Virus genome (UHGV): UHGV-0097968
Reading direction: 5' to 3' (one strand)
Length of the DNA stretch: 47,717 nt
DNA from: a virus
A model generated the notes under the pieces. That model was not told the origin of the DNA. It did not search any database and worked only from the letters and a program-made list of their open reading frames with translations. Positions within the stretch are counted from its first letter, which is position 1; each line of letters opens with the position of its first letter. A program made the position numbers and the translations under genes. Shown piece by piece: positions 152-21,179 of the stretch.

Positions 152-227
<76 letters not shown>

Positions 228-281
228 GTTTAAAAGACATCGGCCTCAAGCGGATGTCTGGCTGAAAGGCCTGAAGAATTT

Positions 282-355
282 GGCGCGTTAACAAAGCGGT
301 TATGTAGCGGATTGCAAATCCGTCTAGTCCGGTTCGACTCCGGAACGCGCCTCCA
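282..355 (+). tRNA. cysT: tRNA-Cys (anticodon GCA)
   Basis: 74-nt cloverleaf GGCGCGTTAACAAAGCGG...GCGCCTCCA; anticodon loop TGCAAAT. Confidence 0.95.
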
Positions 356-367
356 CTTTCTTCCCGA

Positions 368-454
368 GCCCGGATGGTGGAATCGGTAGACACAAGGGAT
401 TTAAAATCCCTCGGCGTTCGCGCTGTGCGGGTTCAAGTCCCGCTCCGGGTACCA
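368..454 (+). tRNA. leuZ: tRNA-Leu (anticodon UAA), long variable arm; intact copy, 3' part lies inside attL
   Basis: 87-nt type II tRNA GCCCGGATGGTGGAATCGGTAGACAC...GGGTACCA; anticodon stem AGGGA/TCCCT with loop TTTAAAA. Confidence 0.95.
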
Positions 455-584: not shown

Positions 585-1631
585 TCATTTTCTCTGGCCA
601 CCAACTACGGGCACTACTTTAACTTTTCGGTCATATGCTGCTGTCTGTCGTGGGTTCTTATGCCCGGAAATTGCTTGCTTCTCTTCCAGGCTGCCTTCCA
701 GATCAGAGATACCTTTTGCTTTCAGATCATGAAATGTGAAGTCTATTTGCAGATGAGGATATTTTTCCTGTGCTGCCGCTTTGACATCACGCCAACGAGA
801 GTTAAAACCATCACGGGTGTACTTGCCTCCGGTAGTTTGATGAATCACAAACAGGCTACTGATTCCCGGTTTTAATGGCAGAGAACGAGCCAGAGCTATC
901 GCTTTCTGCAGACGAGGCGACCAGGCTTTGATTTGCTTAACGCCGGTTTTTCCCTGACGAATGTAGATCCCGGAATCGAACAGCTGGTCTTTCTGCAATG
1001 AAAGTACATCACTCTGTCTGGCCACGCATAAGTAGGCAATCTCCATTGCCACGCGAACAACATCAGGAGATACTTCATAAACGGCCTGATATTCTTCATC
1101 CGTAATATAACGTTCGCGTGCTGTCTCTTTAAACTGCTTAACTCCCTGACAAGGATTCCTCTGGACATAACCTCGTTCATAACCCCAACGGAATACCCTG
1201 GACATAAAGCTTTTTTCCCTGTTTGCCTGAGTTCGGCTTGATAAACCGCGTTGATCCATATAGCGCCGAATATGTTCAGGTTTGATTTTATCCGGGTCGA
1301 TCTTCCCGAAGACAGGCAGAACTTTTCCGGAATATTTTGTGTAGTCTTTCCTGGTTTCGACTGCCAAATCCATAAAATCAGGGGAGGTCATGAATTGTTC
1401 CGCGAGCGCCTGAAAAGTATTTCTTTCTTTTTCGTCACCGACCGCTTTTTCATATGCCAGCCATACGGCTGATCGTGGCGCATCCAATGCGCACAGGCGT
1501 ATCGCTTTGTTATCTTTATTCCTGAATTCGTAGGCCGCTTTGCCCTGGTAAACACGAGGCGGCATCCAGTTATCTGCTGGGTTCTTTCTCTTTCCGGCCA
1601 TTAAATATTGCTCCAAAATCAGGTTCATCAT
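585..1631 (-). CDS. int: Tyrosine recombinase, lambda-family phage integrase
   Basis: 348-aa ORF next to attL; C-terminal catalytic region with HDLKAKGISD...GH...AAYDRK resembling lambda Int R-H-R-Y region; RQGKTGVKQIK motif; true start may be an internal Met (MAGKRK). Confidence 0.9.
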   Translation of the reverse strand: MMNLILEQYLMAGKRKNPADNWMPPRVYQGKAAYEFRNKDNKAIRLCALDAPRSAVWLAYEKAVGDEKERNTFQALAEQFMTSPDFMDLAVETRKDYTKYSGKVLPVFGKIDPDKIKPEHIRRYMDQRGLSSRTQANREKSFMSRVFRWGYERGYVQRNPCQGVKQFKETARERYITDEEYQAVYEVSPDVVRVAMEIAYLCVARQSDVLSLQKDQLFDSGIYIRQGKTGVKQIKAWSPRLQKAIALARSLPLKPGISSLFVIHQTTGGKYTRDGFNSRWRDVKAAAQEKYPHLQIDFTFHDLKAKGISDLEGSLEEKQAISGHKNPRQTAAYDRKVKVVPVVGGQRK

Positions 1632-5037: not shown

Positions 5038-5358
5038 TTAGTAGGGGATTTCATCGGTATCTGGCGTGTATTCGATGCAAAGTAACTGCTGGATTTTGTC
5101 ATCGATAGCAGCAATACGCTGTTGGGCGTCGGCGGCTGTTTTCTGTTTTTGCTCACGCAGCTGCTCAACCTGTAAACCGATGATGTCGATTGGCTGGGGC
5201 TGGTTGACGGTAATTTCAATTTCGCGGCTTTCCAGAAGGATGTACCTGTCTGGAAAATTTTTTGACATATCAACCGTCGCAATAAACAGCTTTTCATGGC
5301 TGAAAGTTGAAGTTGCATAATTAATAAAGAGTGTTACTGGGATGGTGCGCGCTTCCAT
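5038..5358 (-). CDS. Hypothetical early protein (first ORF of leftward operon)
   Basis: 106-aa ORF preceded by AAGGAG RBS (ccaccAAGGAGtcgctATG on minus strand). Confidence 0.5.
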   Translation of the reverse strand: MEARTIPVTLFINYATSTFSHEKLFIATVDMSKNFPDRYILLESREIEITVNQPQPIDIIGLQVEQLREQKQKTAADAQQRIAAIDDKIQQLLCIEYTPDTDEIPY

Positions 5359-6256
5359 AGCGACTCCTTGGTGGGGTATACTCAGAACCGATCAGCGGTT
5401 CTGTCGTTGGTCTTTCCTCGGTGTAAGGTTGGTCCCTTGCACCATATCCGAATGGTTTGGTCGCCGTTCGGGGTAACTGGCCCGCCTTGTGCGGGTCTTT
5501 TGCCATCTAAAGGGTGCCGGTTACGTTTCCGGCGTCGTTATGTTTCCATTACGACCGTACAGGGCTGGTCAGGCCCGGGCTGGTCTTTCCTGTTTTGAGC
5601 TGGTCAGGCTCATGGTCAACGCTGGTCAGGCGTGGTACTTCCTCCGGTCTTTCCCTGGTGTCATGCTGCGGGTTTGGCCTCTCCTGTTGGGGACTCAGGC
5701 ACAGCGATAAAACCTGGCTGTGTGAAAAAATGGCCCATCGTGCGGACTGGGCAAAGACTAAACACAGCAAATTGATGATGGGCGCCCGGAATCGAACCGG
5801 GTAACGGGCAGGGAGTTCCCGTCAAACACCTGTTCACCACAACCGGGAGCGCACTCCGCCATTTCAAAATTTAACGACAAAGCTCAAAGTTGAGTCGATG
5901 AAGTGCGCTCTCGTGTTGTAGCCAGGACTCTTCCCTGGTGGTCACACCGTATCGCCTTGATGGTGAATCAATCGCTCATACCTGGCTGTGGCTTGCACAT
6001 TCCGGCTACCTGCTATGGAGACAACGCGTTAAGGCTCCGCTTCCATCCAGACCGCTTCGACACATGTGCCATATGCCGGTGAAGTCTTTCCCTCTGTCAT
6101 CGTGTTGGCGCCGACGCGCAAAATTTGGTGCCGTCTTTCCGGCTGTCAGAACGTGTTTCTGAACAACTGCCGCTGGGTAAGCGTTGTTGATGGAATGAAT
6201 ATAACTAAAGGTAATTTTATGCGCAAGGTGTTTTATAACAAAAGTTAGTATTTGGG
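5359..6256 (-). other. Roughly 900-bp apparently non-coding leader of the leftward early operon, containing repeated GCCTGACCAGC and GGAAAGACC motifs and a candidate PL promoter/operator near 6210-6256
   Basis: No convincing ORF on either strand (only short overlapping biased ORFs); three copies of CCTGACCAGC on the transcript-sense strand near 5570-5640; operator-like AACAAAAGTTAGTATTT near 6236-6256 shares sequence with the cI-cro operator region. Confidence 0.45.
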
Positions 6257-6306
6257 GTAAAAATAAAGGCAATGCATTGAAAACATTGCCTTTATTTTAT
6301 TTTTTG
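6257..6306. terminator. Bidirectional rho-independent terminator after the repressor gene
   Basis: 10-bp stem AAAGGCAATG/CATTGCCTTT with 9-nt loop, flanked by A-run on one side and T-run (TTTATTTTATTTTTT) on the other. Confidence 0.6.
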
Positions 6307-6710
6307 GTGGGGGTTAGTTTCTTTCTGGTAACCAGTAACTCTTCAAATAAACGATTAAAGTTTTCAACTTTATCTTCTAATTCAATTAGTTGCTTTTCTT
6401 TTTCTGACTCGGGTAATGAATCAAATAACTCTAACAATCTTTTTTGACGTGAATCCAGCTCTGTTGGTAATTCGTCTACCGGAGTTGGCGCCTGGTCTTC
6501 GTCACCAAAAAGCAGCCATGTGGCAGAACACTTAAGTGCATTGGCCAAAGCCAGCAAGTTCTGACCTTTTGGTTCATTTTGTCCGCTTTCCCATTTAAAA
6601 ACGCTCACACTCGATCTTCCAACCATATCAGCAAGCTGTTGTTGGGTTAGACCAAGCTGTTTGCGTCTTTGAGATAAACGGTCGCTAAGCATCAAATTCT
6701 TCATCCTCAT
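6297..6710 (-). CDS. cI-like repressor, XRE-family HTH only (no peptidase S24 domain)
   Basis: 137-aa ORF with N-terminal HTH (LTQQQLADMVGRSSVSVFKWESGQNEP), divergent from a Cro-like gene; C-terminal part short, acidic and coiled-coil-like. Confidence 0.85.
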   Translation of the reverse strand: MRMKNLMLSDRLSQRRKQLGLTQQQLADMVGRSSVSVFKWESGQNEPKGQNLLALANALKCSATWLLFGDEDQAPTPVDELPTELDSRQKRLLELFDSLPESEKEKQLIELEDKVENFNRLFEELLVTRKKLTPTKK

Positions 6711-6778
6711 AATATAAGTTAACTTGACATAACTTTCGTTAGTATTTATGTTGCTAACAAAAGTTACGTGGAGGGATT
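6711..6778. promoter_or_regulatory. Immunity-region operator/promoter (PR-like for cro; operators)
   Basis: TTGACA at 6724-6729, 17-bp spacer, TATGTT at 6747-6752; perfect palindrome AAGTTAACTT at 6716-6725 overlapping -35; additional AACAAAAGTTA half-site; GGAGGG RBS before cro ATG. Confidence 0.6.
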
Positions 6779-6976
6779 ATGAAAACAGAGACGGTTATTA
6801 GTTTTTTTGGTTCAAAGACAGCCACAGCCAAGGTGCTGGGTATATCTCAAGTGGCGGTTACTCGTTGGGGGGCAACAGTTCCTGAAAAGCGAGCTGCTCG
6901 ACTCGACCATATCACTAACGGAGCACTGAAATATGACCCGACTTTTTACGATGTTCCAAAACATGAAAAAGCTTAG
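6779..6976 (+). CDS. Cro-like small HTH regulator
   Basis: 65-aa ORF, HTH FGSKTATAKVLGISQVAVTRW, divergent from repressor. Confidence 0.75.
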   Translation: MKTETVISFFGSKTATAKVLGISQVAVTRWGATVPEKRAARLDHITNGALKYDPTFYDVPKHEKA

Positions 6977-7035
6977 CAAAGGGCGGCTTATTACATCTGA
7001 TTAAGCGTAATCAATTTTTAGCGACAGGAGACGCT

Positions 7036-7512
7036 ATGGAAAACCCAGAGGAATTACAAAAAGAGATTTTGACCTGGGCGGCAAGGGCAGGGCAGGAACT
7101 CGTCACGATTGAAATCTGCCGGGCCTGGTTCAGTCAGGGACGCAATGATGAGTTGAGACTACATGAATTTGAGGACGCGGACGGCAATGTGGACTGGAGA
7201 GCCATCAACAACAATCGGCAGAAAATCTTTCGCTGGTTACGTGGCGAGACAACGGCGGCGCGCCGAAAAACTCAGGTGCTGGCCAGTGTGATGAAAGCCG
7301 TGCTACCCGCAGAACGGCGGGCGCGTCTGGAGTCGCCGGGCGATCCCGTTTTGCTGGCAACGCTGGCGGCAAAAGAAGGGGGGGAAGCGATTAACGCTGT
7401 ACATCTCCACTTCGCGCCAGAGTTAACTATTCAGGAAATTGACGAAGCAATAGCGGCGCTGGTAGCGACGCGAGGGGCAGTGATAAGCACTGCGCAAGGC
7501 CACCATGCATGA
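7036..7512 (+). CDS. YdaT-like protein (cII-position regulatory protein)
   Basis: 158 aa; segment IFRWLRGETTAARRKTQVL resembles YdaT-family signature by recollection; follows cro. Confidence 0.5.
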   Translation: MENPEELQKEILTWAARAGQELVTIEICRAWFSQGRNDELRLHEFEDADGNVDWRAINNNRQKIFRWLRGETTAARRKTQVLASVMKAVLPAERRARLESPGDPVLLATLAAKEGGEAINAVHLHFAPELTIQEIDEAIAALVATRGAVISTAQGHHA

Positions 7513-7551
7513 GCGCCTGACCAGCGTTTAACTTATACCGAGGAAAGACCG

Positions 7552-7776
7552 ATGTTAAGACATATTGACCGCATTACCTGGCGTAACGGCTGGCACCTGA
7601 ATGGGCGCCCGGCACATGTTGCAGAGATCCAACCTATTTTTGATGGGCGTATGGCTGCCGCGCTTTCGGTGTGGGAGCAGTATGAATCCAGGAAGGTCGA
7701 GTTGCGCGACAAAGGGCTGAGCAATGCGGACTATGAAGCCGGTTGTCGTCAGATAGCCGAAGCTCTGGAGATCTGA
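7552..7776 (+). CDS. Hypothetical early protein
   Basis: 74-aa ORF preceded by conserved element CCTGACCAGCG...ACCGAGGAAAGACCGATG. Confidence 0.5.
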   Translation: MLRHIDRITWRNGWHLNGRPAHVAEIQPIFDGRMAAALSVWEQYESRKVELRDKGLSNADYEAGCRQIAEALEI

Positions 7777-11514: not shown

Positions 11515-11568
11515 TTGACGTGATTATAACCTAAGGTTATCATCAAAATACTGTACATTTATACAGTG
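11515..11568 (+). promoter_or_regulatory. Promoter with palindromic operator and LexA (SOS) box upstream of the colicin-like gene
   Basis: TTGACG 11515-11520; 15-bp perfect palindrome ATAACCTAAGGTTAT 11526-11540 in the spacer; -10 TATCAT 11538-11543; LexA box TACTGTACATTTATACAGTG 11549-11568 (CTGT-N8-ACAG). Confidence 0.7.
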
Positions 11569-11623
11569 CTTAGAGGGTGATTCTCTAATATCTCTGGGAA
11601 ATAATTAATAGAAGGAAGTAGAT

Positions 11624-12775
11624 ATGGCATGGACTGGATTTGGTGGTCAATGGAATAACGGTGTGCATTCTGGCGGTGATGATTCTGGCAGTATAGGCGG
11701 TGGGGGCATAAAACTTGACGGCAAAGGGAATCCTGTAGGTACTCGTGCGCCGACTGCTGAGGAGATCGCATCACAATGGAATAGCTTTGGAGGTAGTCAG
11801 ATTAAACCCAGTGATGTATCGAACATCAGACCGGATGGTGAAGGTACTTATCAGGCTAACATTGCAGGTAATTACCACGTTGTAAGTTCGCAGGGCGCGA
11901 ATACCCCATTTGCTTCGGAACGTAGCAACGTTGCGGCAGGTTTTAGTGGTGGTGTGGGACCAACGCCTGATGGAAGGGGTAACAATAGTGCACCCAGCAA
12001 TCCAAAGGCTGAGGCCGAGGCAAAGAAATGGATTGAAACAGTCAAGGCTGTTCGGGCTGGTAATATCCCCTACGGTTATGTTCTTAACGACGGCAAGGTA
12101 GGCGTAAACGTGCCTCAATATGTTGAACGCCGCAAAGGTCGTGGCGACACATATACCGTTCGGGGTAAAGATTTGTTTGTTGTTTCGCCTGAACTGACAA
12201 AAGCGTATCAGGATGGTCTTGCGGAACGTGCTGAGATTCTGGACGCCGTCAAATTTACGTCTGATTTCTATAAAGACCTTGCAGGTAAATTTGGACAGCA
12301 TAACGCGAACATCGCAAAGGAACTGGCGGAGGCTGCAAAAGGCAAGAAGATTCGTAACAGCAAAGATGCACTGGCGGCGGTGGATAAATTTAATAACCGA
12401 CTGAGTAAAAAGTATGGAGCCAAAGACCTTGAGGCAGTTGCCAGGGCTTTGGAATCGGTTAACCGGGATGCAATGGCGAAGAATTTGTCTAAATTTGGTA
12501 AGGCATTTGGTGTCGCAAGTTATGCTGTCGATGCTTACAATGTTCTTTACATTGAATTTCCGAAAGCTATTCGTACCAAAAACTATCGCCCAATGCTTGT
12601 TAAGTTGGAGGCAATTCTTCTTGGTGCTGATGCTGGTATTGTTGCTGCGTGGGCATTTAGTGCGCTTCTGGCAACGCCGATGGGTATTCTGACGTTTGCG
12701 CTTATAATGGCATTGCTAAGTGCGATGATTAATGAAAAACGCATTGAGGAACTGAATAAGTTCTTAGGGATTTAA
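11624..12775 (+). CDS. Colicin E1-family pore-forming bacteriocin (short, 383 aa; Gly-rich N-terminal domain, C-terminal channel-forming domain)
   Basis: Gly-rich N-terminus MAWTGFGGQWNNGVHSGGDDSGSIGGGG; C-terminal domain with GKKIRN, KFGKAFGVAS, RTKNYRPMLVKLEAILLGADAGIVAAWAFSALLATPMGILTFALIMALLSAMINEKRIEELNKFLGI (hydrophobic hairpin and terminal NKFxGI) matching my recollection of colicin E1/Ia-type pore domains; SOS box in promoter; GAAGGAAG RBS. Confidence 0.85.
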   Translation: MAWTGFGGQWNNGVHSGGDDSGSIGGGGIKLDGKGNPVGTRAPTAEEIASQWNSFGGSQIKPSDVSNIRPDGEGTYQANIAGNYHVVSSQGANTPFASERSNVAAGFSGGVGPTPDGRGNNSAPSNPKAEAEAKKWIETVKAVRAGNIPYGYVLNDGKVGVNVPQYVERRKGRGDTYTVRGKDLFVVSPELTKAYQDGLAERAEILDAVKFTSDFYKDLAGKFGQHNANIAKELAEAAKGKKIRNSKDALAAVDKFNNRLSKKYGAKDLEAVARALESVNRDAMAKNLSKFGKAFGVASYAVDAYNVLYIEFPKAIRTKNYRPMLVKLEAILLGADAGIVAAWAFSALLATPMGILTFALIMALLSAMINEKRIEELNKFLGI

Positions 12776-12795
12776 CCGTTATCAGTAGTAACAAG

Positions 12796-12818
12796 GGCCA
12801 CGTCATGTGGCCTTTTTT
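12796..12818 (+). terminator. Rho-independent terminator after the colicin-like gene
   Basis: Stem GGCCAC/GTGGCC, loop GTCAT, then T6; the immunity gene stop codon lies inside the loop on the other strand. Confidence 0.6.
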
Positions 12819-13147
12819 GACAATTGAATATAAATAATAGACAGGAGGCCAATGGGAATGGAAAAAATAAAAAGAATACCGTGGTATAAACCCATTACCC
12901 CGCTTTTTAAACAGGTGTCTGTCCACGCTCCTGTTACCCATGATTCGGATGTTGTATATTTGAGGACGATGTTTTCTACAGCTTTTTTTGCATATGGGAA
13001 CAAGAAACAACTAATAACAGAAAGCATAACCAAATAATCCCATATCCACAAATCGCCTTCAGCTATGGCCTGATGCCACCTGAAAACCGTCATGCCGAGA
13101 AATACGCATCCGTACAGGATGTTGCTCAAATAATATCGAAATGTCAT
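12803..13147 (-). CDS. Colicin E1-type immunity protein (3-TM inner-membrane protein), convergent with toxin gene
   Basis: 114 aa; MTFRYYLSNILYG..., FPYAKKAVENI..., SIPIGLLSIIYI resemble ImmE1 (MSLRYYIKNILFG..., CPYSKYAIEYI..., AIPFGLLGLF) by recollection; three hydrophobic segments; opposite-strand arrangement typical of pore-former immunity genes. Confidence 0.8.
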   Translation of the reverse strand: MTFRYYLSNILYGCVFLGMTVFRWHQAIAEGDLWIWDYLVMLSVISCFLFPYAKKAVENIVLKYTTSESWVTGAWTDTCLKSGVMGLYHGILFIFSIPIGLLSIIYIQLSKKAT

Positions 13148-13479: not shown

Positions 13480-13556
13480 GCAGCCGCAAAATCGGTTGCC
13501 GGGATTTGCACCCCGGATATCTAAAAGGCGACAACGACGCGCCAGCGTCTTTTTTA
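13480..13556 (+). ncRNA. Candidate about 77-nt small regulatory RNA upstream of the antirepressor gene (C4-like/antisense-type)
   Basis: Promoter immediately upstream; hairpin GCAGCCG-CAAAAT-CGGTTGC; hairpin CCGGG-ATTTGCAC-CCCGG; terminator stem GACGC/GCGTC with GCCA loop and T6 at 13536-13556; loop sequence has a complementary and a direct copy in the antirepressor leader. Confidence 0.4.
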
Positions 13557-13715
13557 TTGTCGTGCGCACAGCCACATCCGCGATTTATGGTGGGGCGTGT
13601 AGGGGAGTCGAAAGGCTCGCCGGGTCCTTTTAGCCGGTAGTGCAAACCCTGCATGTCTCACCACCCAAAGATTTGCACCTGAGGGGGGTGATTATCCGAC
13701 TAAAAGGAAATCGCT

Positions 13716-14510
13716 ATGACAACTCAAGTATCCGCAGCAGCCATCTCCCCGATTATCCACAACCAACTTCCCGTCCTCACCACCGAATTACTCGCGAACC
13801 TCTATGGCACAGAGCCGGATTACATTCGTAAAAACCATAACCGGAACTCAGAGCGATTCGTGGTCGGGAAGCATTACTTTTTGCTCGAAGGTGAGGAGTT
13901 GCGCGAATTTAAGCACAGCATGTCTTTAAGACCTCCTGTGAAAATCGCCAGAAATGTCCGCTCTCTCATCCTCTGGACAGAACGCGGCGCAGCTCGCCAT
14001 GCCAAAATGCTGGAAACAGAACAGGCCTGGGAAGTTTTCGAAAAGCTGGAAGATTGTTATTTTAGCCAGCGTCCAGAGAGGCGGAGTACAACTACCGATG
14101 ACCGTACTCCCTTACGTGATGCCGTTAATATGCTGGTCGGTAAGAAAGGCATGATGTATCCCGATGCCTACACCATGATTCATCAACGCTTCGCCGTCTC
14201 TCACATAGAACAACTGTCACAGACGCAAATGTTAGAGGCGATTGAATACATCCACTGCCTGCTACTCGATGAAAATCAGCCAACCATTCCGGATTTTTCT
14301 TTTATCACCACTATCAAAAATGGAAAAGTGACAAGGATGCGCCATGTTGCCAAAGGCGAACATCTGATGACCTTTGACGCTTTCAAAGAGATCGCTGAGC
14401 GGGCAGGGTATCTGGTGATCCACAGCGACAACCTGCGAAGTATGACGCTGGATAAATTGATGCTAATGGGGGAAAAGTCGGCTGTATCCGTTGCTGATTC
14501 AGCATTTTGA
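13716..14510 (+). CDS. Putative antirepressor (ORF6N-like N-terminal domain)
   Basis: 264 aa; N-terminal region ISPIIHNQLPVLTTELLANLYGTEPDYIRKNHNRNSERFVVGKHYFLLEGEELREF resembles ORF6N/Ant-type domain by recollection; RBS AAAAGGAAA. Confidence 0.6.
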   Translation: MTTQVSAAAISPIIHNQLPVLTTELLANLYGTEPDYIRKNHNRNSERFVVGKHYFLLEGEELREFKHSMSLRPPVKIARNVRSLILWTERGAARHAKMLETEQAWEVFEKLEDCYFSQRPERRSTTTDDRTPLRDAVNMLVGKKGMMYPDAYTMIHQRFAVSHIEQLSQTQMLEAIEYIHCLLLDENQPTIPDFSFITTIKNGKVTRMRHVAKGEHLMTFDAFKEIAERAGYLVIHSDNLRSMTLDKLMLMGEKSAVSVADSAF

Positions 14511-14687: not shown

Positions 14688-15611
14688 TTATTGGTTTCTG
14701 AGGAAAGCGATTCTTGAAAGGGTCATTTGCGTCTGGCAGTCGAGCATTTTCTTGACTTCAGCATCTGTTCCCTGCATTGAAACTTTACCGCACATAGCAT
14801 CCTTAGTTTTGATCCACTGACGCTGAGAAGGCAGCAAATCTTTTTTCTTCGCCGGGGTTAACTTGCTCCAGACGGTACTCAAATCAGAGTCGGCATTCGC
14901 AAATGCCATTCGGGACTGATCAAGGCTGTCAGCTTTTTGTGGCTGAAGTTGTGCCTGTCTCTCTATTTGCTTCTCCGCCTCATACTTAGCCTGTTCCTGC
15001 GCCCTGAGTTGCACCTGTTGTTCCGCTTCAATTTGGCTCTGTTGGGCATCCTTAGCCTGCTGGATTTTCTGCTGCTCAACGATCGGGTTGATAATAGAAA
15101 GTGATGTCAGTAAAGCGGCGCCCACTGATATCGGATTATCAGAAGAGGTTTTTACAAAAACGTTTTTCTGATCGTCGGTCGCCTGCACGGTGTAGGTGAT
15201 ACGTTTGGAAAAGGCGTTTGCGTTGTTCTCCAAAAACAGGCTTTCCATTTGCTTGTCGAGATTACGATTAAAATTCTTTCTGTAAGCATCTGAAAGCTGG
15301 ACGTACTCGTTCGCAGGTAGAGTCATCGTCACGGTCCCTTCACAAGTTTTCATTGTGCTGCCCGTGTCACTTGATGTTGTGGAGATTTCAGAGACGGCTA
15401 GTTTGATCTTGTCCAGTGTGCTTCGTTTGGTCTGATTAGTGACATCAGGGTATTTATCGACCTGTTCAGAGAGTCCTTCATAAGCAGATTTTTTTAATAA
15501 ATCCATGAGAGCTGATTGGGTCATTTCCGAAGAACAACCGATCTCATCTTTTTTGTTATCACAGCCTGTAAGGGCAATGGCGAGTAAGAGTACTGAGTAT
15601 TTTAATCTCAT
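14688..15611 (-). CDS. Lipoprotein with C-terminal DUF1311/LprI-like domain
   Basis: 307 aa; signal peptide with lipobox LTGC; Gln-rich coiled-coil middle; C-terminal motif WSKLTPAKKKDLLPSQRQWIKTKDAMC...C typical of DUF1311 by recollection. Confidence 0.75.
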   Translation of the reverse strand: MRLKYSVLLLAIALTGCDNKKDEIGCSSEMTQSALMDLLKKSAYEGLSEQVDKYPDVTNQTKRSTLDKIKLAVSEISTTSSDTGSTMKTCEGTVTMTLPANEYVQLSDAYRKNFNRNLDKQMESLFLENNANAFSKRITYTVQATDDQKNVFVKTSSDNPISVGAALLTSLSIINPIVEQQKIQQAKDAQQSQIEAEQQVQLRAQEQAKYEAEKQIERQAQLQPQKADSLDQSRMAFANADSDLSTVWSKLTPAKKKDLLPSQRQWIKTKDAMCGKVSMQGTDAEVKKMLDCQTQMTLSRIAFLRNQ

Positions 15612-16639: not shown

Positions 16640-17305
16640 ATGAAAGCCGACAACTTAAGAATTATAGAGAATGGCAAATATGTTTTCGATATGTTCTTGG
16701 ATACTGGTGAATTTTACTATACAAGTCATGCCTTTGACACGAGAGAAGATGCAAAAAGCTGGATGGAAGAATGGCAGATTTGGGCAAATAATGTATCGAG
16801 TGGGAAAGTAAGTAGTATTTATTATATTTTACAAGTGCCTGATACTTGGGCCGGTTCTTCAGATAAAAATAACCCTTACTCGGGACTTTATGTGAAAATA
16901 GGGCGTTCCAATAATGTGCTAAAAAGGTTGTCTAACCTGCAGACAGGTGCATTTGGTCAATTAATATTACACGCTTTGGAACCTGGTGGTTCAGAAAAAG
17001 AAAACTATCTTCATGAAAAATTTAGCAACGAAAGACGTCAAGGTGAATGGTTTGTTTGTACTAAGGAACTTACCAAGCATATATTTACAACATGGTTTAA
17101 AAACAAAATGCTCCCACCAGAACATCAAATAAAAATAATGCAGCTCGCAGAAAGAATAGGTATTTATTCGCATGTTCATACACTAATGGGGGGGAAGCCA
17201 GACTTAGTAAACCCATCTATTAGTGAACCTTGGGAATGCGAAAAATATGTTTTGGTTGATATGATTTATAGCTCTTTAGCAAAGCAAGTTAATCATAAAA
17301 AATAA
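16640..17305 (+). CDS. T5orf172 (GIY-YIG-like) domain protein with unassigned N-terminal domain
   Basis: 221 aa; GLYVKIGRSNNVLKRLSNLQTG ... ENYLHEKFSNERRQGEWF matches the T5orf172/MUG113 signature (KIG..., LQTG, LH..F...R..GEWF) by recollection; AT-rich region. Confidence 0.7.
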   Translation: MKADNLRIIENGKYVFDMFLDTGEFYYTSHAFDTREDAKSWMEEWQIWANNVSSGKVSSIYYILQVPDTWAGSSDKNNPYSGLYVKIGRSNNVLKRLSNLQTGAFGQLILHALEPGGSEKENYLHEKFSNERRQGEWFVCTKELTKHIFTTWFKNKMLPPEHQIKIMQLAERIGIYSHVHTLMGGKPDLVNPSISEPWECEKYVLVDMIYSSLAKQVNHKK

Positions 17306-18139: not shown

Positions 18140-18745
18140 TTACTTGCGTTTAAAAAGGTATTTTGTCACGACCAGCACGAGGCCGAATACCTCTGTCAAA
18201 GTACCGCCCATGTACAACTGGAGCGTTAAGTCTTTAAATACAAGCCATTCAGCACCAGTGGCAAAAAATACACCATTCATTATCAAAAGCTGGCAAGCAA
18301 GGATAATAAGGAACCATTTGCCATAGCGTTTTTTTAGATCGATTTCAGCTTCAAAATCTTTGTTGTTGAGTTGTTTGCGCTCATGCTCAGTATCAAGTGA
18401 ATTCACCTGTTTCACAGATGTGAACTCGGTCAAGATTTTACTCTCAGTACGGGTGACTTGTTGAGAGGGGGTAGGAATTGGAATTCTTTTGATTGACGCA
18501 GCTACAGCCATTTTGCGAGCTTCGGCAGCTCTTTTTCTGGCTATTCCGTGAATACGGGCAGACGGTTTTTTTGGAGCGTGCGAAACCTTTGTCTGAGGTG
18601 AAGTTTCGTCAGGAGACTGAACCGGAGTTTCATCCTCCTCCGGCTCAACCTCTTCTGCTAACTGACGGTGTAGGTTGAGGGAATCCTTCAGTCGGCGTGC
18701 AACTTCCTGTTTGAAACGGCTGTTAAAATCGTCATCCGATGGCAT
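18140..18745 (-). CDS. Membrane protein (disordered charged N-terminal region, two C-terminal TM helices), co-operonic with ImmA-like peptidase
   Basis: 201 aa; hydrophobic segments WFLIILACQLLIMNGVFFATGA and GTLTEVFGLVLVVTKYL; 9-bp gap to upstream peptidase gene; 3' end duplicated at 14542-14618. Confidence 0.65.
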   Translation of the reverse strand: MPSDDDFNSRFKQEVARRLKDSLNLHRQLAEEVEPEEDETPVQSPDETSPQTKVSHAPKKPSARIHGIARKRAAEARKMAVAASIKRIPIPTPSQQVTRTESKILTEFTSVKQVNSLDTEHERKQLNNKDFEAEIDLKKRYGKWFLIILACQLLIMNGVFFATGAEWLVFKDLTLQLYMGGTLTEVFGLVLVVTKYLFKRK

Positions 18746-18754
18746 TCTAAAGCG

Positions 18755-19243
18755 TTACCCCAACCTCAAGTTCTTTAAACGATAAGTCATCGCATCGTCA
18801 GATACGCCAAAATGATGCGCCATTATATAACTTGGTTGGCCGTCAGCGTGCAGTTTTCTGACCTCATCTACCGGCATCAGAAGTTCTGCTGCGAACTTGT
18901 TCGCAAAAATTTCATCAGGATGCGTTCCGGCGCTTGCGGTTTCGCCACGTAAATCAACGTACTCATATTCATCGCTATGCGATGCTTGCCGGGCGATGTA
19001 ATGCCCCAACTCATGCCCACATGAAAAACGTTGACGAACTTTGTTGTCATCACTGTTTAGAAAGATCGCTGGATCTTGATCTTTTTGTTTAATCAGTGCG
19101 CCAGAAACTTTCCCAGGAAGATCGGTAATAAAAACATCTAATCCCATGTCGTGAGCAATTTTCGCTGGATCAACAGGGAAACCACGCCCGCACCAGAACG
19201 TGTCCAGCACTCGCCGGGCGTGCTCTCTTGGGTTGGTAGCCAT
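18755..19243 (-). CDS. ImmA/IrrE-family zinc metallopeptidase (COG2856-like)
   Basis: 162 aa; HEXXH motif in RQRFSCGHELGHYIA; downstream EIFANKFAAELLMPVDEV and FGVSDDAMTYRLKNL typical of ImmA/IrrE. Confidence 0.8.
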   Translation of the reverse strand: MATNPREHARRVLDTFWCGRGFPVDPAKIAHDMGLDVFITDLPGKVSGALIKQKDQDPAIFLNSDDNKVRQRFSCGHELGHYIARQASHSDEYEYVDLRGETASAGTHPDEIFANKFAAELLMPVDEVRKLHADGQPSYIMAHHFGVSDDAMTYRLKNLRLG

Positions 19244-19810
19244 AGCTCCTCCAGTTACTGCATTACGATTATTGGTTGAAATATAGACAACATGTTCCGT
19301 ACCACATTCCTGTAAAAGTGCAAATTCTGCACTTCTGGTACGATATTAACTGTTAGTAGTAAAGTCTTCCAGATAAATCACTTTAAAATCTTGTGAATTG
19401 CTTGCTTTTTACGCTGCATTGTGGATGACTCAATGTTTCCAGTAAAAACATACAGGATAATCATGAGATTAGTGGTTTTTTAGGCATCCATATGTTTCTG
19501 AAAAAAATGGATGCCACAAGCGCCTGGATGAGCACAGGAAGGGAAGGCTATTACATGTGTGATTTATTACATCTGTAAAAAAATACAGATCTAACTTGAT
19601 CTTTTCATTGAAGTCTTTCTTAGTCCTGGATAGGATCTGGAGGTTGCGAAGTTTTTAGAGTCGCATCAAAGGGAAAGCCCTGACAGTTGGAGCTGTCAGG
19701 GCCATACAAAAACATCGGTTAATGCTTTCGTTGAGATCTCGGTTTGGGAGATTACCTCAACCGGGATCCCGTGTAAAGCATTCATTGCCGAAAATGATAT
19801 AGGTCAATGA

Positions 19811-20941: not shown

Positions 20942-20979
20942 ATGACAAATGCCATAAAATACTGTATAAATGTACAGGC
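20942..20979 (+). promoter_or_regulatory. Second LexA (SOS) box overlapping a promoter
   Basis: TACTGTATAAATGTACAGGC at 20960-20979 (CTGT-N8-ACAG); -35 ATGACA 20942-20947 and -10 TATAAA 20965-20970 inside the box. Confidence 0.65.
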
Positions 20980-20999: not shown

Positions 21000-21179
21000 A
21001 TGAATATTCAAGAATCTATAGGCGAACTACCGGAAACATGCCGGGCTGTTATCAAGCGTAAGGACGGACACATCGTTGGTGTGCGTGTTCTGACTGATGA
21101 TGAACGGATTGCCAGCCTGACGGCGTTTCTCGAGTTGGCAGAAACAGCCGGATATACTATTACACCCCCTGACGCGTAA
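21000..21179 (+). CDS. SOS-controlled small protein (59 aa), candidate antirepressor or SOS effector
   Basis: ORF below the track's 60-aa cutoff, found by reading; strong RBS GGGGGAAG; LexA box 20 bp upstream; terminator-like hairpin downstream (21195-21225). Confidence 0.5.
   Translation: MNIQESIGELPETCRAVIKRKDGHIVGVRVLTDDERIASLTAFLELAETAGYTITPPDA

Follow-up and report, generated by a model that had tools for sequence, protein, structure and literature searches.

A lambdoid immunity region with a DicA-type repressor lacking an S24 module and a candidate SOS-induced Rem-family antirepressor in an E. coli prophage

The segment 6297-6976 of virus genome UHGV-0097968 (the window: 47,717 nucleotides) is, judged from its sequence, a lambdoid immunity region of the DicA/DicC (Qin) and Gifsy type. 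It belongs to a lambdoid prophage of E. coli that looks intact and is inserted beside the tRNA genes Gly-Cys-Leu. The best explanation of its genetic switch, to which we give a probability of roughly 70%, is a non-cleavable DicA-type repressor combined with an SOS-induced antirepressor of the Rem family. The pairing of a non-cleavable repressor with an SOS-controlled antirepressor is textbook material for the Gifsy phages, with DicA/Rem as an extension of it. The mechanism is already known from the Salmonella Gifsy phages, in a description that lists DicA among the homologues (PMC3121763), and from the E. coli Qin prophage: the window holds a new member, not one that is new in kind. Its novelty is modest and lies in the Rem-like domain, which is shared between two proteins and may be portable. 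The features discussed below are collected in Table 1.

Table 1. Features of the immunity region and of the candidate induction modules (coordinates in the window)
Feature	Position	Strand	Basis or remark
OL2-like operator TAACTAAAGGTA	6202..6213		one mismatch; at predicted PL transcript start
PL-like promoter	6214..6241	-	TTGTTA, 16-nt spacer, TAAAAT (consensus scan)
OL1-like operator TAACAAAAGTTA	6236..6247		overlaps -35 of leftward PL-like promoter; in a block conserved in phiES15
Repressor-gene terminator	6260..6298		perfect 15-bp inverted repeat, 9-nt loop, flanking A/T runs
DicA-type lysogenic repressor	6297..6710	-	P22-C2-like HTH, acidic helical hairpin, without S24
OR3-like operator TAATATAAGTTA	6710..6721		one mismatch; overlaps repressor start codon
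PR-like promoter for cro	6724..6752	+	TTGACA, 17-nt spacer, TATGTT
OR2-like operator TAACTTTCGTTA	6730..6741		between PR -35 and -10
OR1-like operator TAACAAAAGTTA	6755..6766		perfect TAAC-N4-GTTA; just 3' of PR -10
Cro (P22_Cro / DicC type), 65 aa	6779..6976	+	Pfam P22_Cro 7e-20
YdaT-family protein	7036..7512	+	Pfam YdaT_toxin 1.8e-15; phrog_163 'CII-like' 5.5e-43
isrK-family RNA, seqA-like equivalent	13480..13555	+	Rfam RF01394, 76.2 bits (gathering 50)
C4-family antisense RNA	13583..13668	+	Rfam RF01695, 73.6 bits (gathering 45)
Large antirepressor (Ant), ORF6N N-terminus and Rem-like C-terminus (~194-241)	13716..14510	+	Pfam ORF6N 1.2e-18
ImmA/IrrE-like M78 metallopeptidase	18755..19243	-	Peptidase_M78 1.4e-17, HELGH motif
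LexA box CTGTATAAATGTACAG	20962..20977	+	perfect CTGT-N8-ACAG core
59-aa Rem-family protein, candidate SOS-induced antirepressor	21000..21179	+	phrog_340

Counted from the first ATG, the repressor ORF encodes 137 amino acids (aa), as a preliminary description of this DNA had stated. PGAP starts a homologue at Met3, equivalent here to 6297..6704 (135 aa), and the ATG at 6704 is likely the true start. A leaderless PRM transcript beginning at Met3 is possible, as read from a single hexamer (a candidate TATATT -10 element six bases 5' of that ATG). The Pfam matches of the protein are confined to HTH_3 (residues 13-66, E = 1.4e-14) and other models of the HTH type, in keeping with the XRE HTH that had been noted; Peptidase_S24 was not found at E ≤ 0.1, and the sequence contains no AG or CG dipeptide, so there is no Ala-Gly or Cys-Gly bond. 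The same holds among 104 homologues, all of them 82-159 aa long and bearing HTH Pfam domains at most (S24 in 0/104). With the S24 module absent from its predicted domain content, the repressor is predicted to be incapable of self-cleavage, which argues for induction via an antirepressor and for DNA damage being sensed indirectly. The proposal of an immunity region governed by an HTH-only repressor without an autocleavage module is confirmed by the Pfam results, by the homologues and by the conserved operators described below.

Beyond the HTH domain lie about 68 residues that are predicted to form two helices. These C-terminal 68 residues hold 18 D+E against 12 K+R (pI 4.6), and the AlphaFold2 model of the protein (pLDDT 83.6) shows an HTH of five helices (6-66) joined by a linker to a hairpin of two helices (85-96 and 99-130); the earlier wording, an acidic coiled-coil-like C-terminus, is a fair description of this region.

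The repressor is 52% identical to K-12 DicA over the full length (E = 1e-47). The two proteins have the same length and share a C-terminal LLxLFxxLPESE...LFEELL motif, and the NCBIfam DicA model NF007257 scores 199 bits against a cut-off of 101, with residues 1-130 aligned to positions 1-132 of the 135 in the profile. The N-terminal domain of P22 C2 matches both by sequence (5e-15) and by fold (TM 0.97). The short non-cleavable repressors GfoR, GtgR and GfhR of Gifsy-1, -2 and -3 are also similar in kind: Gifsy-2 GtgR is 31% identical (E = 2e-11) and has the LPExEK motif in common with the repressor. Compared with lambda cI, P22 C2 and LexA-type proteins, the divergent arrangement of PR/PRM type is alike, as are the three operators on the right and two on the left, but the S24 domain and the Ala-Gly or Cys-Gly bond are absent here and the protein is 135 rather than 216 aa long. 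In Foldseek searches, the few full-length fold analogues include the SinR/SinI and arbitrium repressor/AimX complexes (1b0n, 9iaq, 9sf2), and among the weaker matches are ImmR, CapH and DdrO. SinR/SinI of Bacillus subtilis and the SPbeta-type arbitrium repressor with AimX resemble the present system in joining an XRE HTH to a C-terminal helical oligomerisation hook and in the proposed neutralisation by a small partner, although no sequence relationship was detected beyond the HTH. By this analogy the likeness is one of working principle, not of family membership.

The cro gene is divergent from the repressor gene across an operator-bearing intergenic region of 68 bp with three operator-like sites. 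Its product falls in phrog_409, the PHROG that also holds K-12 DicC, and the YdaT-family protein encoded after it belongs to a group that acts as the cII equivalent in such immunity regions (PMC9986795). In Qin, dicF and dicB lie downstream of dicA; here, in contrast, the prophage looks complete, with early-left genes beyond PL. Megablast of 5900-7600 against a phage collection returned no match, and relatives came from protein-level search; over 5300-6800, Rfam at permissive thresholds gave nothing but sub-threshold matches.

The operator unit is predicted to be TAAC-N4-GTTA, with five candidate sites, of which PR has three and PL two. Four perfect copies of this motif occur in the 47.7 kb of the window against 0.59 expected, a number reached by no shuffle, and three of the four flank the repressor gene; when up to one mismatch is allowed, the whole window holds 28 copies, five of them within 6202-6766. 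In Cronobacter phage phiES15 (the record of which describes the phage as UV-induced), all five sites are found at the same places. The OR half-sites are conserved there while the central 4 bases of the OR1-like site differ, and the OL2 block ATAACTAAAGGTAATTTT is identical, yet OL1 and OL2 are separated by sequence that has diverged. The -35 hexamer of the PR-like promoter, which has 10/12 consensus matches in a consensus scan, is conserved in phiES15 as well. A perfect palindrome, AAGTTAACTT, and a repeated half-site recurring near 6236-6256 as a candidate left operator had been singled out previously. Both are real and both form part of operator sites: TAACAAAAGTTA is present in exact copies at 6236-6247, the OL1-like site, and at 6755-6766. 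The palindrome (6716-6725) combines OR3's right half (GTTA, 6718-6721) with the sequence running through the first two bases of the PR -35 hexamer; it does not hold up as a unit, and the five TAAC-N4-GTTA sites describe the region better. Qin operators differ, being TGTTAG-N6-CTAACA-like palindromes. A Qin-like GTTAG-N6-CTAAC operator was weighed for the present region and dismissed: its half-sites pair up only once, 11 bases apart, and phiES15 supports TAAC-N4-GTTA. The result is a readable operator grammar, three sites to the right and two to the left, that is backed by the phiES15 comparison.

In the lysogen, we infer that the 135-aa repressor binds, probably as a dimer and through its P22-C2-like HTH, to the three operators over PR and its own start codon (6710-6766) and to the two over PL (6202-6247). 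Binding would silence cro, ydaT and the replication genes rightward and the early-left operon leftward. After DNA damage, RecA-stimulated cleavage of LexA would derepress the promoter associated with the LexA box, and the 59-aa Rem-family protein would then be made, bind the repressor, most likely at its C-terminal hairpin, and remove it from the DNA, after which Cro would lock the lytic state. Ant, which the C4-type antisense RNA would hold in check together with isrK, may provide a second input.

The 59-aa protein is placed in the Rem family by profile comparisons. It matches phrog_340 at 4.1e-20 and K-12 Rem matches the same PHROG at 4.4e-21; by hhalign, a profile of 40 sequences of the 59-aa family, built without Rem, matches Rem with a probability of 93% (E = 3.3e-7). 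The link exists at the profile level only: BLASTP gives no alignment of the two proteins at E ≤ 100, and Rem is longer (83 versus 59 aa). Homologue searching with the ORF yielded seven near-identical proteins only, the family becoming visible by a profile search of a representative library. The AlphaFold2 model (pLDDT 88.7) is a beta-hairpin plus a helix, unlike the helical peptide SinI, and sequence and fold searches of the PDB gave no match. Rem has been shown experimentally to be a DicA antirepressor, by which the DicA-controlled promoter dicBp is derepressed 165-fold (PMC10448788). In Qin, as here, the small protein of this PHROG is encoded kilobases from the immunity region, near Q. The candidate for Gifsy-2 GftA, STM1020.1n, belongs to a different PHROG (phrog_4847, not phrog_340), and its hhalign match to the 59-aa family is weak (probability 45%, E = 2e-4), being co-linear over 44 columns.

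SOS control of the 59-aa ORF, also proposed in the preliminary description, is supported by its predicted LexA box. The core of the box is perfect, and the 20-mer agrees with the consensus TACTGTATATATATACAGTA at 16/20 positions. A perfect box lies 36-38 nt 5' of the start codon in all 13 of the IMG/VR homologues with upstream sequence (71-97% identical; their 10-kb flanks stop short of the immunity region) and is also found before a 40% identical homologue in phage BUCT708; in each of these cases a DUF1367 gene adjoins the boxed gene. A consensus scan found no sigma-70 promoter directly over the box, the nearest being about 50 bp upstream. The arrangement is that of Gifsy GfoA, GftA and GfhA (PMC3121763), the genes of which lie outside the immunity region, between replication genes and Q and behind a LexA box, except that the LexA-controlled unit here has no dinI or irsA and the small ORF directly follows the box. 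Qin rem differs in having no LexA box upstream, and dicBp is not induced by mitomycin C (PMC10448788); therefore SOS control is not universal in the Rem family. The window thus offers a clean case, from what looks like an intact E. coli prophage, of a Rem-type antirepressor that retains the LexA box, a link lost in Qin. In the 27 kb of phiES15 examined there is no CTGT-N8-ACAG box, so that portion yields no LexA-boxed gene with which to connect the UV inducibility of that phage.

The antirepressor allele is far more widespread than the repressor allele, being present in 442 E. coli genomes as against only 12-14. The Gifsy phages likewise associate one antirepressor allele with several immunity alleles. 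In E. coli SK1144, the antirepressor gene has 96% nucleotide identity, while the repressor is 31% identical in the HTH and 48% in the C-terminal hairpin, a difference that fits an antirepressor aimed at a conserved C-terminus. On this comparison, the most likely target of the 59-aa protein is the conserved C-terminal helical hairpin of the repressor. That prophages differing in immunity allele share one antirepressor allele, across about 440 E. coli genomes, could explain the cross-induction of co-resident prophages.

Ant carries a related domain under a different kind of control. The protein matches phrog_4792 ('anti-repressor') at 2.5e-149; its residues 199-240 match phrog_340 at 3e-12, and its C-terminus aligns with the 59-aa protein by BLASTP (3e-6) and by hhalign (97.7%). 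The homology between its C-terminus and the 59-aa protein makes Ant credible as a second antirepressor route. The tandem arrangement of isrK and C4 before ant is like that of the Gifsy-1 isrK-orf45(STnc1160)-anrP module (PMC4825925), P1/P7 immI (c4 RNA-icd-ant) and P4 seqA-CI-seqC. A repeat, GATTTGCACC, flanks C4 (13503-13512, inside the isrK RNA, and 13670-13679, in the ant leader) and would be complementary to an unpaired C4 segment: GTGCAAA (13640-13646, unpaired in the MFE fold) can form 7 perfect pairs, noted by eye, with TTTGCAC in each repeat. Scored by RNAduplex, the pairing of the ant leader with C4 or isrK was no better than in shuffled controls, in a crude test with overlong inputs. 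What sets the present module apart is its Ant, which has an ORF6N domain and ends in a Rem-like one. Several independent routes to repressor inactivation had been suggested at the outset. Two are plausible, the 59-aa protein and Ant; a candidate small RNA had been listed as a separate route, but isrK and C4 at 13480-13668 are the presumed control element of Ant, and the ImmA-like peptidase is not supported either, for the reasons given below.

Could Ant under the isrK/C4 switch be the relevant inducer, with the 59-aa protein serving elsewhere (for example in modulation of the DUF1367-Q operon downstream, or against the repressors of other resident prophages)? The strong PHROG match and Rem-like domain of Ant, the two RNAs above their gathering thresholds directly upstream of it, and the loose association of the 59-aa allele with this immunity allele are in its favour, as are the reports that Gifsy-1 AnrP raises transcription of the antQ operon (PMC4825925) and that antirepressors act on non-cognate repressors (PMC3121763). 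We nevertheless consider it unlikely, since P22 Ant is dispensable for P22 induction (PMC3121763) and the conserved LexA box, which the Ant module does not have, singles out the 59-aa gene as the point where SOS acts; moreover, a role for Ant as inducer and the proposed role of the 59-aa protein are mutually compatible. A switch that does not respond to SOS at all, flipping stochastically or under other stresses through repressor/Cro bistability, has a somewhat smaller chance still of being correct. Its models are Qin DicA/DicC, where dicBp switches on spontaneously without Rem or RecA and reacts to urea and to high temperature, mitomycin C having no such effect (PMC10448788), and CP-933P PaaR2/YdaS, a bistable immunity region with a repressor that is unresponsive to mitomycin C (PMC8630535). 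Qin and CP-933P are, however, defective prophages, whereas here a conserved LexA box precedes the Rem-like gene, and UV induction was the source of its relative phiES15.

Cleavage of the DicA-type repressor by the M78 metallopeptidase after DNA damage, after the manner of ImmA/ImmR, CapP/CapH and IrrE/DdrO, appears highly improbable. The enzyme has the M78 features given in Table 1 and most resembles CapP (PADLOC capP 1.6e-25); peptidases of this kind are known to act on short XRE HTH repressors, three of which (ImmR, CapH and DdrO) are among the weaker fold matches named above. A CTGT-N8-ACAG box also occurs at 19573, in the upstream region of the gene, but it agrees with only 13/20 positions of the 20-nt LexA consensus. 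In ImmR/ImmA, CapH/CapP and DdrO/IrrE-type pairs the two genes usually neighbour each other or share their regulation, while no ORF of 25 aa or more with an HTH was found next to the peptidase gene (around 19244-19800). The gene and a 201-aa partner instead make up a cassette on the minus strand, 12 kb from the repressor, on the strand described as opposite, and the cassette is present in 451 genomes whatever the immunity allele. The ImmA-like route was rejected on these grounds, as nothing links it to the repressor.

The small antirepressor and the C-terminus of the large Ant are one domain, and this could aid the annotation of many phage 'antirepressors'. We tentatively suggest, while judging the odds to be somewhat below even, that the Rem-like fold of about 50 aa serves as a portable binding module for DicA-type repressors and occurs twice here under two sensors. 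If so, LexA-controlled and isrK/C4-gated inputs would converge on one repressor hairpin, and many phage proteins of the 'Ant/Bro/Rha/KilA' kind would draw their repressor specificity from a C-terminal Rem-like module. Elsewhere, the Rem-like module is found fused behind Rha, Bro-N, KilA-N and P22_AR_N domains.

The window is a lambdoid prophage of the E. coli type, integrated next to tRNA genes (see table), and its immunity region is 98.3–99.8% identical to that of same-site prophages in 12 complete E. coli genomes. Its gene order is that of its closest relative as annotated by PGAP: integrase, early-left genes, HTH repressor, Cro/CI regulator, YdaT-family protein and replication genes, followed by an ORF6N protein, accessory genes, an ImmA/IrrE peptidase, a 59-aa hypothetical protein, DUF1367, Q and lysis genes.

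Features of the prophage discussed in the text
Feature	Position	Strand	Remarks
tRNA genes Gly-Cys-Leu	152-454		prophage inserted beside them
Integrase	585-1631	-	
PL-like promoter, leftward	6241-6214		TTGTTA, 16-nt spacer, TAAAAT; overlapped by TAAC-N4-GTTA sites
Repressor ORF	6297-6710	-	137 aa
PR-like promoter	TTGACA at 6724-6729		17-nt spacer, TATGTT; overlapped by TAAC-N4-GTTA sites
Cro	6779-6976	+	P22_Cro family, 7e-20
YdaT-family protein	7036-7512		cII-like
isrK-family RNA	13480-13555		directly 5' of Ant; above Rfam gathering score
C4-family antisense RNA	13583-13668		directly 5' of Ant; above Rfam gathering score
Ant (antirepressor)	13716-14510	+	ORF6N domain
M78 peptidase	18755-19243	-	HELGH motif; closest in PADLOC: CapP, 1.6e-25
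LexA box CTGTATAAATGTACAG	20962-20977		5' of 59-aa ORF; 16/20 match to 20-nt consensus
59-aa ORF	21000-21179		

The repressor starts at Met3 in its homologues and in PGAP, which gives 135 aa. As the preliminary description had claimed, it is an HTH-only protein lacking an S24 module: a Pfam search returns only XRE-type HTH models (HTH_3, residues 13–66, E = 1.4e-14) and no Peptidase_S24, the sequence contains neither Ala-Gly nor Cys-Gly, and the C-terminus is indeed acidic (last 68 residues, pI 4.6). S24 is likewise absent from all 104 homologues (E ≤ 1e-10; 82–159 aa, 103 of them 91–159 aa), in which Pfam finds HTH domains only, except for one 82-aa fragment with no match. In an AlphaFold2 model (40-sequence alignment, pLDDT 83.6), a linker joins a five-helix HTH domain to a helical hairpin (85–96/99–130); the N-terminal domain and the P22 C2 DNA-binding domain match in sequence (5e-15) and in fold (TM 0.97, 45% identity). 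The locus belongs to the DicA family. Its repressor shares 52% identity with K-12 Qin DicA from end to end (E = 1e-47), exceeds the threshold of the curated NCBIfam DicA model (199 bits; cut-off 101), and shares 31% identity with GtgR, the Gifsy-2 repressor. Gifsy repressors of this kind are uncleaved and are inactivated by small LexA-controlled antirepressors; DicA and RacR, found in most E. coli genomes, are listed as family members (Lemire et al., PMC3121763).

The palindrome AAGTTAACTT (6716–6725) and the 12-mer repeat TAACAAAAGTTA (6236–6247 and 6755–6766) noted previously are both confirmed, and are parts of a wider pattern with the core TAAC-N4-GTTA: perfect sites are found at 6236, 6730 and 6755, with one-mismatch sites at 6202 and 6710. 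Of the four perfect cores in the 47.7-kb window (0.59 expected; no shuffle reached four), three fall in the immunity region, as do five, inside 565 bp, of the 28 sites with at most one mismatch. Cronobacter phage phiES15, whose repressor is 68–69% identical, has all five sites at the same positions. Half-sites are invariant in these alignments and the central four bases and spacers vary, a pattern that would be expected for half-sites contacted by a protein. The heteroimmune relatives Qin, BUCT708 and SK1144 carry different repeats at these places. The prophage backbone in E. coli SK1144 matches that of the window (YdaT and left arm identical, 59-aa gene at 96% nucleotide identity), whereas its repressor/cro pair (1947–2689 of the SK1144 locus, versus 6297–6976 in the window) is swapped, with TTGTAAT-type operator repeats; this is immunity-module exchange inside a single prophage lineage.

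The 59-aa ORF and K-12 Rem both match phrog_340 (4e-20 and 4e-21, respectively). Pairwise BLASTP gives no match between them, but Rem aligns to the 59-aa family profile (40 sequences, Rem left out) with 93% probability. The small Qin protein Rem derepresses dicBp, a promoter under DicA control, 165-fold (Ragunathan et al., PMC10448788). A perfect LexA core lies 36–38 nt 5' of the start codon in 13/13 IMG/VR homologues (those counted being 71–97% identical, upstream DNA included), and a 40%-identical homologue in phage BUCT708 has its own perfect LexA box, a DUF1367 gene directly downstream and a DicA-type repressor approximately 8 kb away. A LexA box of this kind is absent at rem in Qin, where dicBp is unresponsive to mitomycin C (PMC10448788); in the window, the SOS link represents the Gifsy-like, presumably intact, state. 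The 59-aa protein is confidently modelled by AF2 as a beta-hairpin plus helix (pLDDT 88.7), a fold with no counterpart found in the PDB.

We judge it likely (probability roughly 0.7) that the locus works like the Gifsy system. LexA cleavage would come first and the small antirepressor would then be made; its non-covalent complex with the repressor would release the latter from the right and left operators, after which Cro would lock the lytic state. The SinR/SinI and arbitrium repressor/AimX pairs have a similar architecture, in which a small protein neutralises a repressor built of an HTH domain and a helical hook; outside the HTH domain they are unrelated to this locus. The induction mechanism is already known; the preliminary finding was correct and well read, and every item that it named is present in the sequence.

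Two of the proposed independent routes to repressor inactivation are not supported as such. The candidate sRNA corresponds to the isrK and C4 RNAs, which adjoin Ant; GATTTGCACC flanks C4 (13503–13512 and 13670–13679) and is complementary to its unpaired GTGCAAA segment, a layout reminiscent of P4 seqA-CI-seqC and P1 c4-ant. The homologous Gifsy-1 module is isrK-orf45-anrP (PMC4825925). The sRNA is therefore a control element of Ant and no separate route. Ant itself matches 'anti-repressor' PHROGs, and homology to the 59-aa protein spans its residues ~194–241 (phrog_340 3e-12, BLASTP 3e-6, hhalign 97.7%), so that Ant is a plausible second, RNA-gated antirepressor that shares the binding module of the small one. 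The N-terminal ORF6N part of Ant has 80% identity with Stx-phage AntB proteins; no phage record covers the C-terminal part. The other route, in which the ImmA-like peptidase inactivates the repressor, is very improbable, as nothing ties the two together: no HTH gene adjoins the peptidase, which is instead paired with a 201-aa protein (phrog_5346, no assigned function), and the cassette (18140–19800) occurs in 451 E. coli genomes whichever immunity allele is present. The cassette possibly serves as an accessory or defence module that responds to DNA damage; a CTGT-N8-ACAG box is found at 19573, in the peptidase's 5' region.

Among 1.84 billion representative proteins, a profile search yields 91 members of the 59-aa family, most of 55–100 aa. 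In approximately ten, the Rem-like domain is the C-terminus of a longer protein, with an N-terminal Rha, Bro-N, P22_AR_N or KilA-N domain in 8/10 checked. No Pfam model covers this ~50-aa domain (14283–14462 in the window), which is C-terminal in P0012, P0033, P0035, P0036, P0056, P0076, P0083 and P0085, its N-terminal partners being these four domains and ORF6N. Only the shared domain, together with its occurrence behind many 'Ant-type' N-terminal domains, is possibly undescribed. Among complete E. coli genomes, the 59-aa allele is found in 442 and the window's repressor allele in 12–14; in SK1144 this antirepressor (96% nucleotide identity) accompanies a heteroimmune repressor. Compared with the window's repressor, that of SK1144 is less similar in the HTH domain (31% identity) than in the C-terminal hairpin (48%), as is that of BUCT708 (48% and 66%, respectively). 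The motif LLxLFxxLPESEK...F..LFEELL is kept across the compared repressors (partial in GtgR). From these comparisons we infer that the hairpin is both the antirepressor target and a dimerisation element.

The stretch that separates the PL-like promoter from the first early-left ORF (5360–6200, ~850 nt) has no convincing ORF and no significant Rfam match. It contains three exact copies of GCTGGTCAGGC (5564, 5599 and 5621) and roughly six GTCTTTCC-type repeats, with 6133–6175 conserved in BUCT708, and may be a structured leader or antitermination element, although no N-like gene is seen. A bacteriocin cassette lies at 11551–13147: a strong LexA box (11551–11566, 17/20 consensus positions), a pore-forming colicin (11624–12775, Pfam Colicin 2e-45) and a colicin E1-type immunity protein (12803–13147, minus strand). 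Neither gene is annotated at the corresponding position in the closest E. coli relative. Between Ant and the peptidase cassette are an LprI-domain (lysozyme-inhibitor-like) gene with a lipoprotein-like N-terminus (14688–15611, minus strand) and a GIY-YIG/T5orf172 nuclease-family gene (16640–17305), downstream of which the closest relative has IS1. A 32-nt type I-E CRISPR spacer, leader-proximal in the single array inspected (strain 104), matches 6275–6306 at 100%, spanning the terminator and the 3' end of the repressor gene, with a functional ATG PAM at 6272–6274; approximately 60 complete E. coli genomes carry this match, and the hosts concerned seem to have been immunised against this family of prophages.
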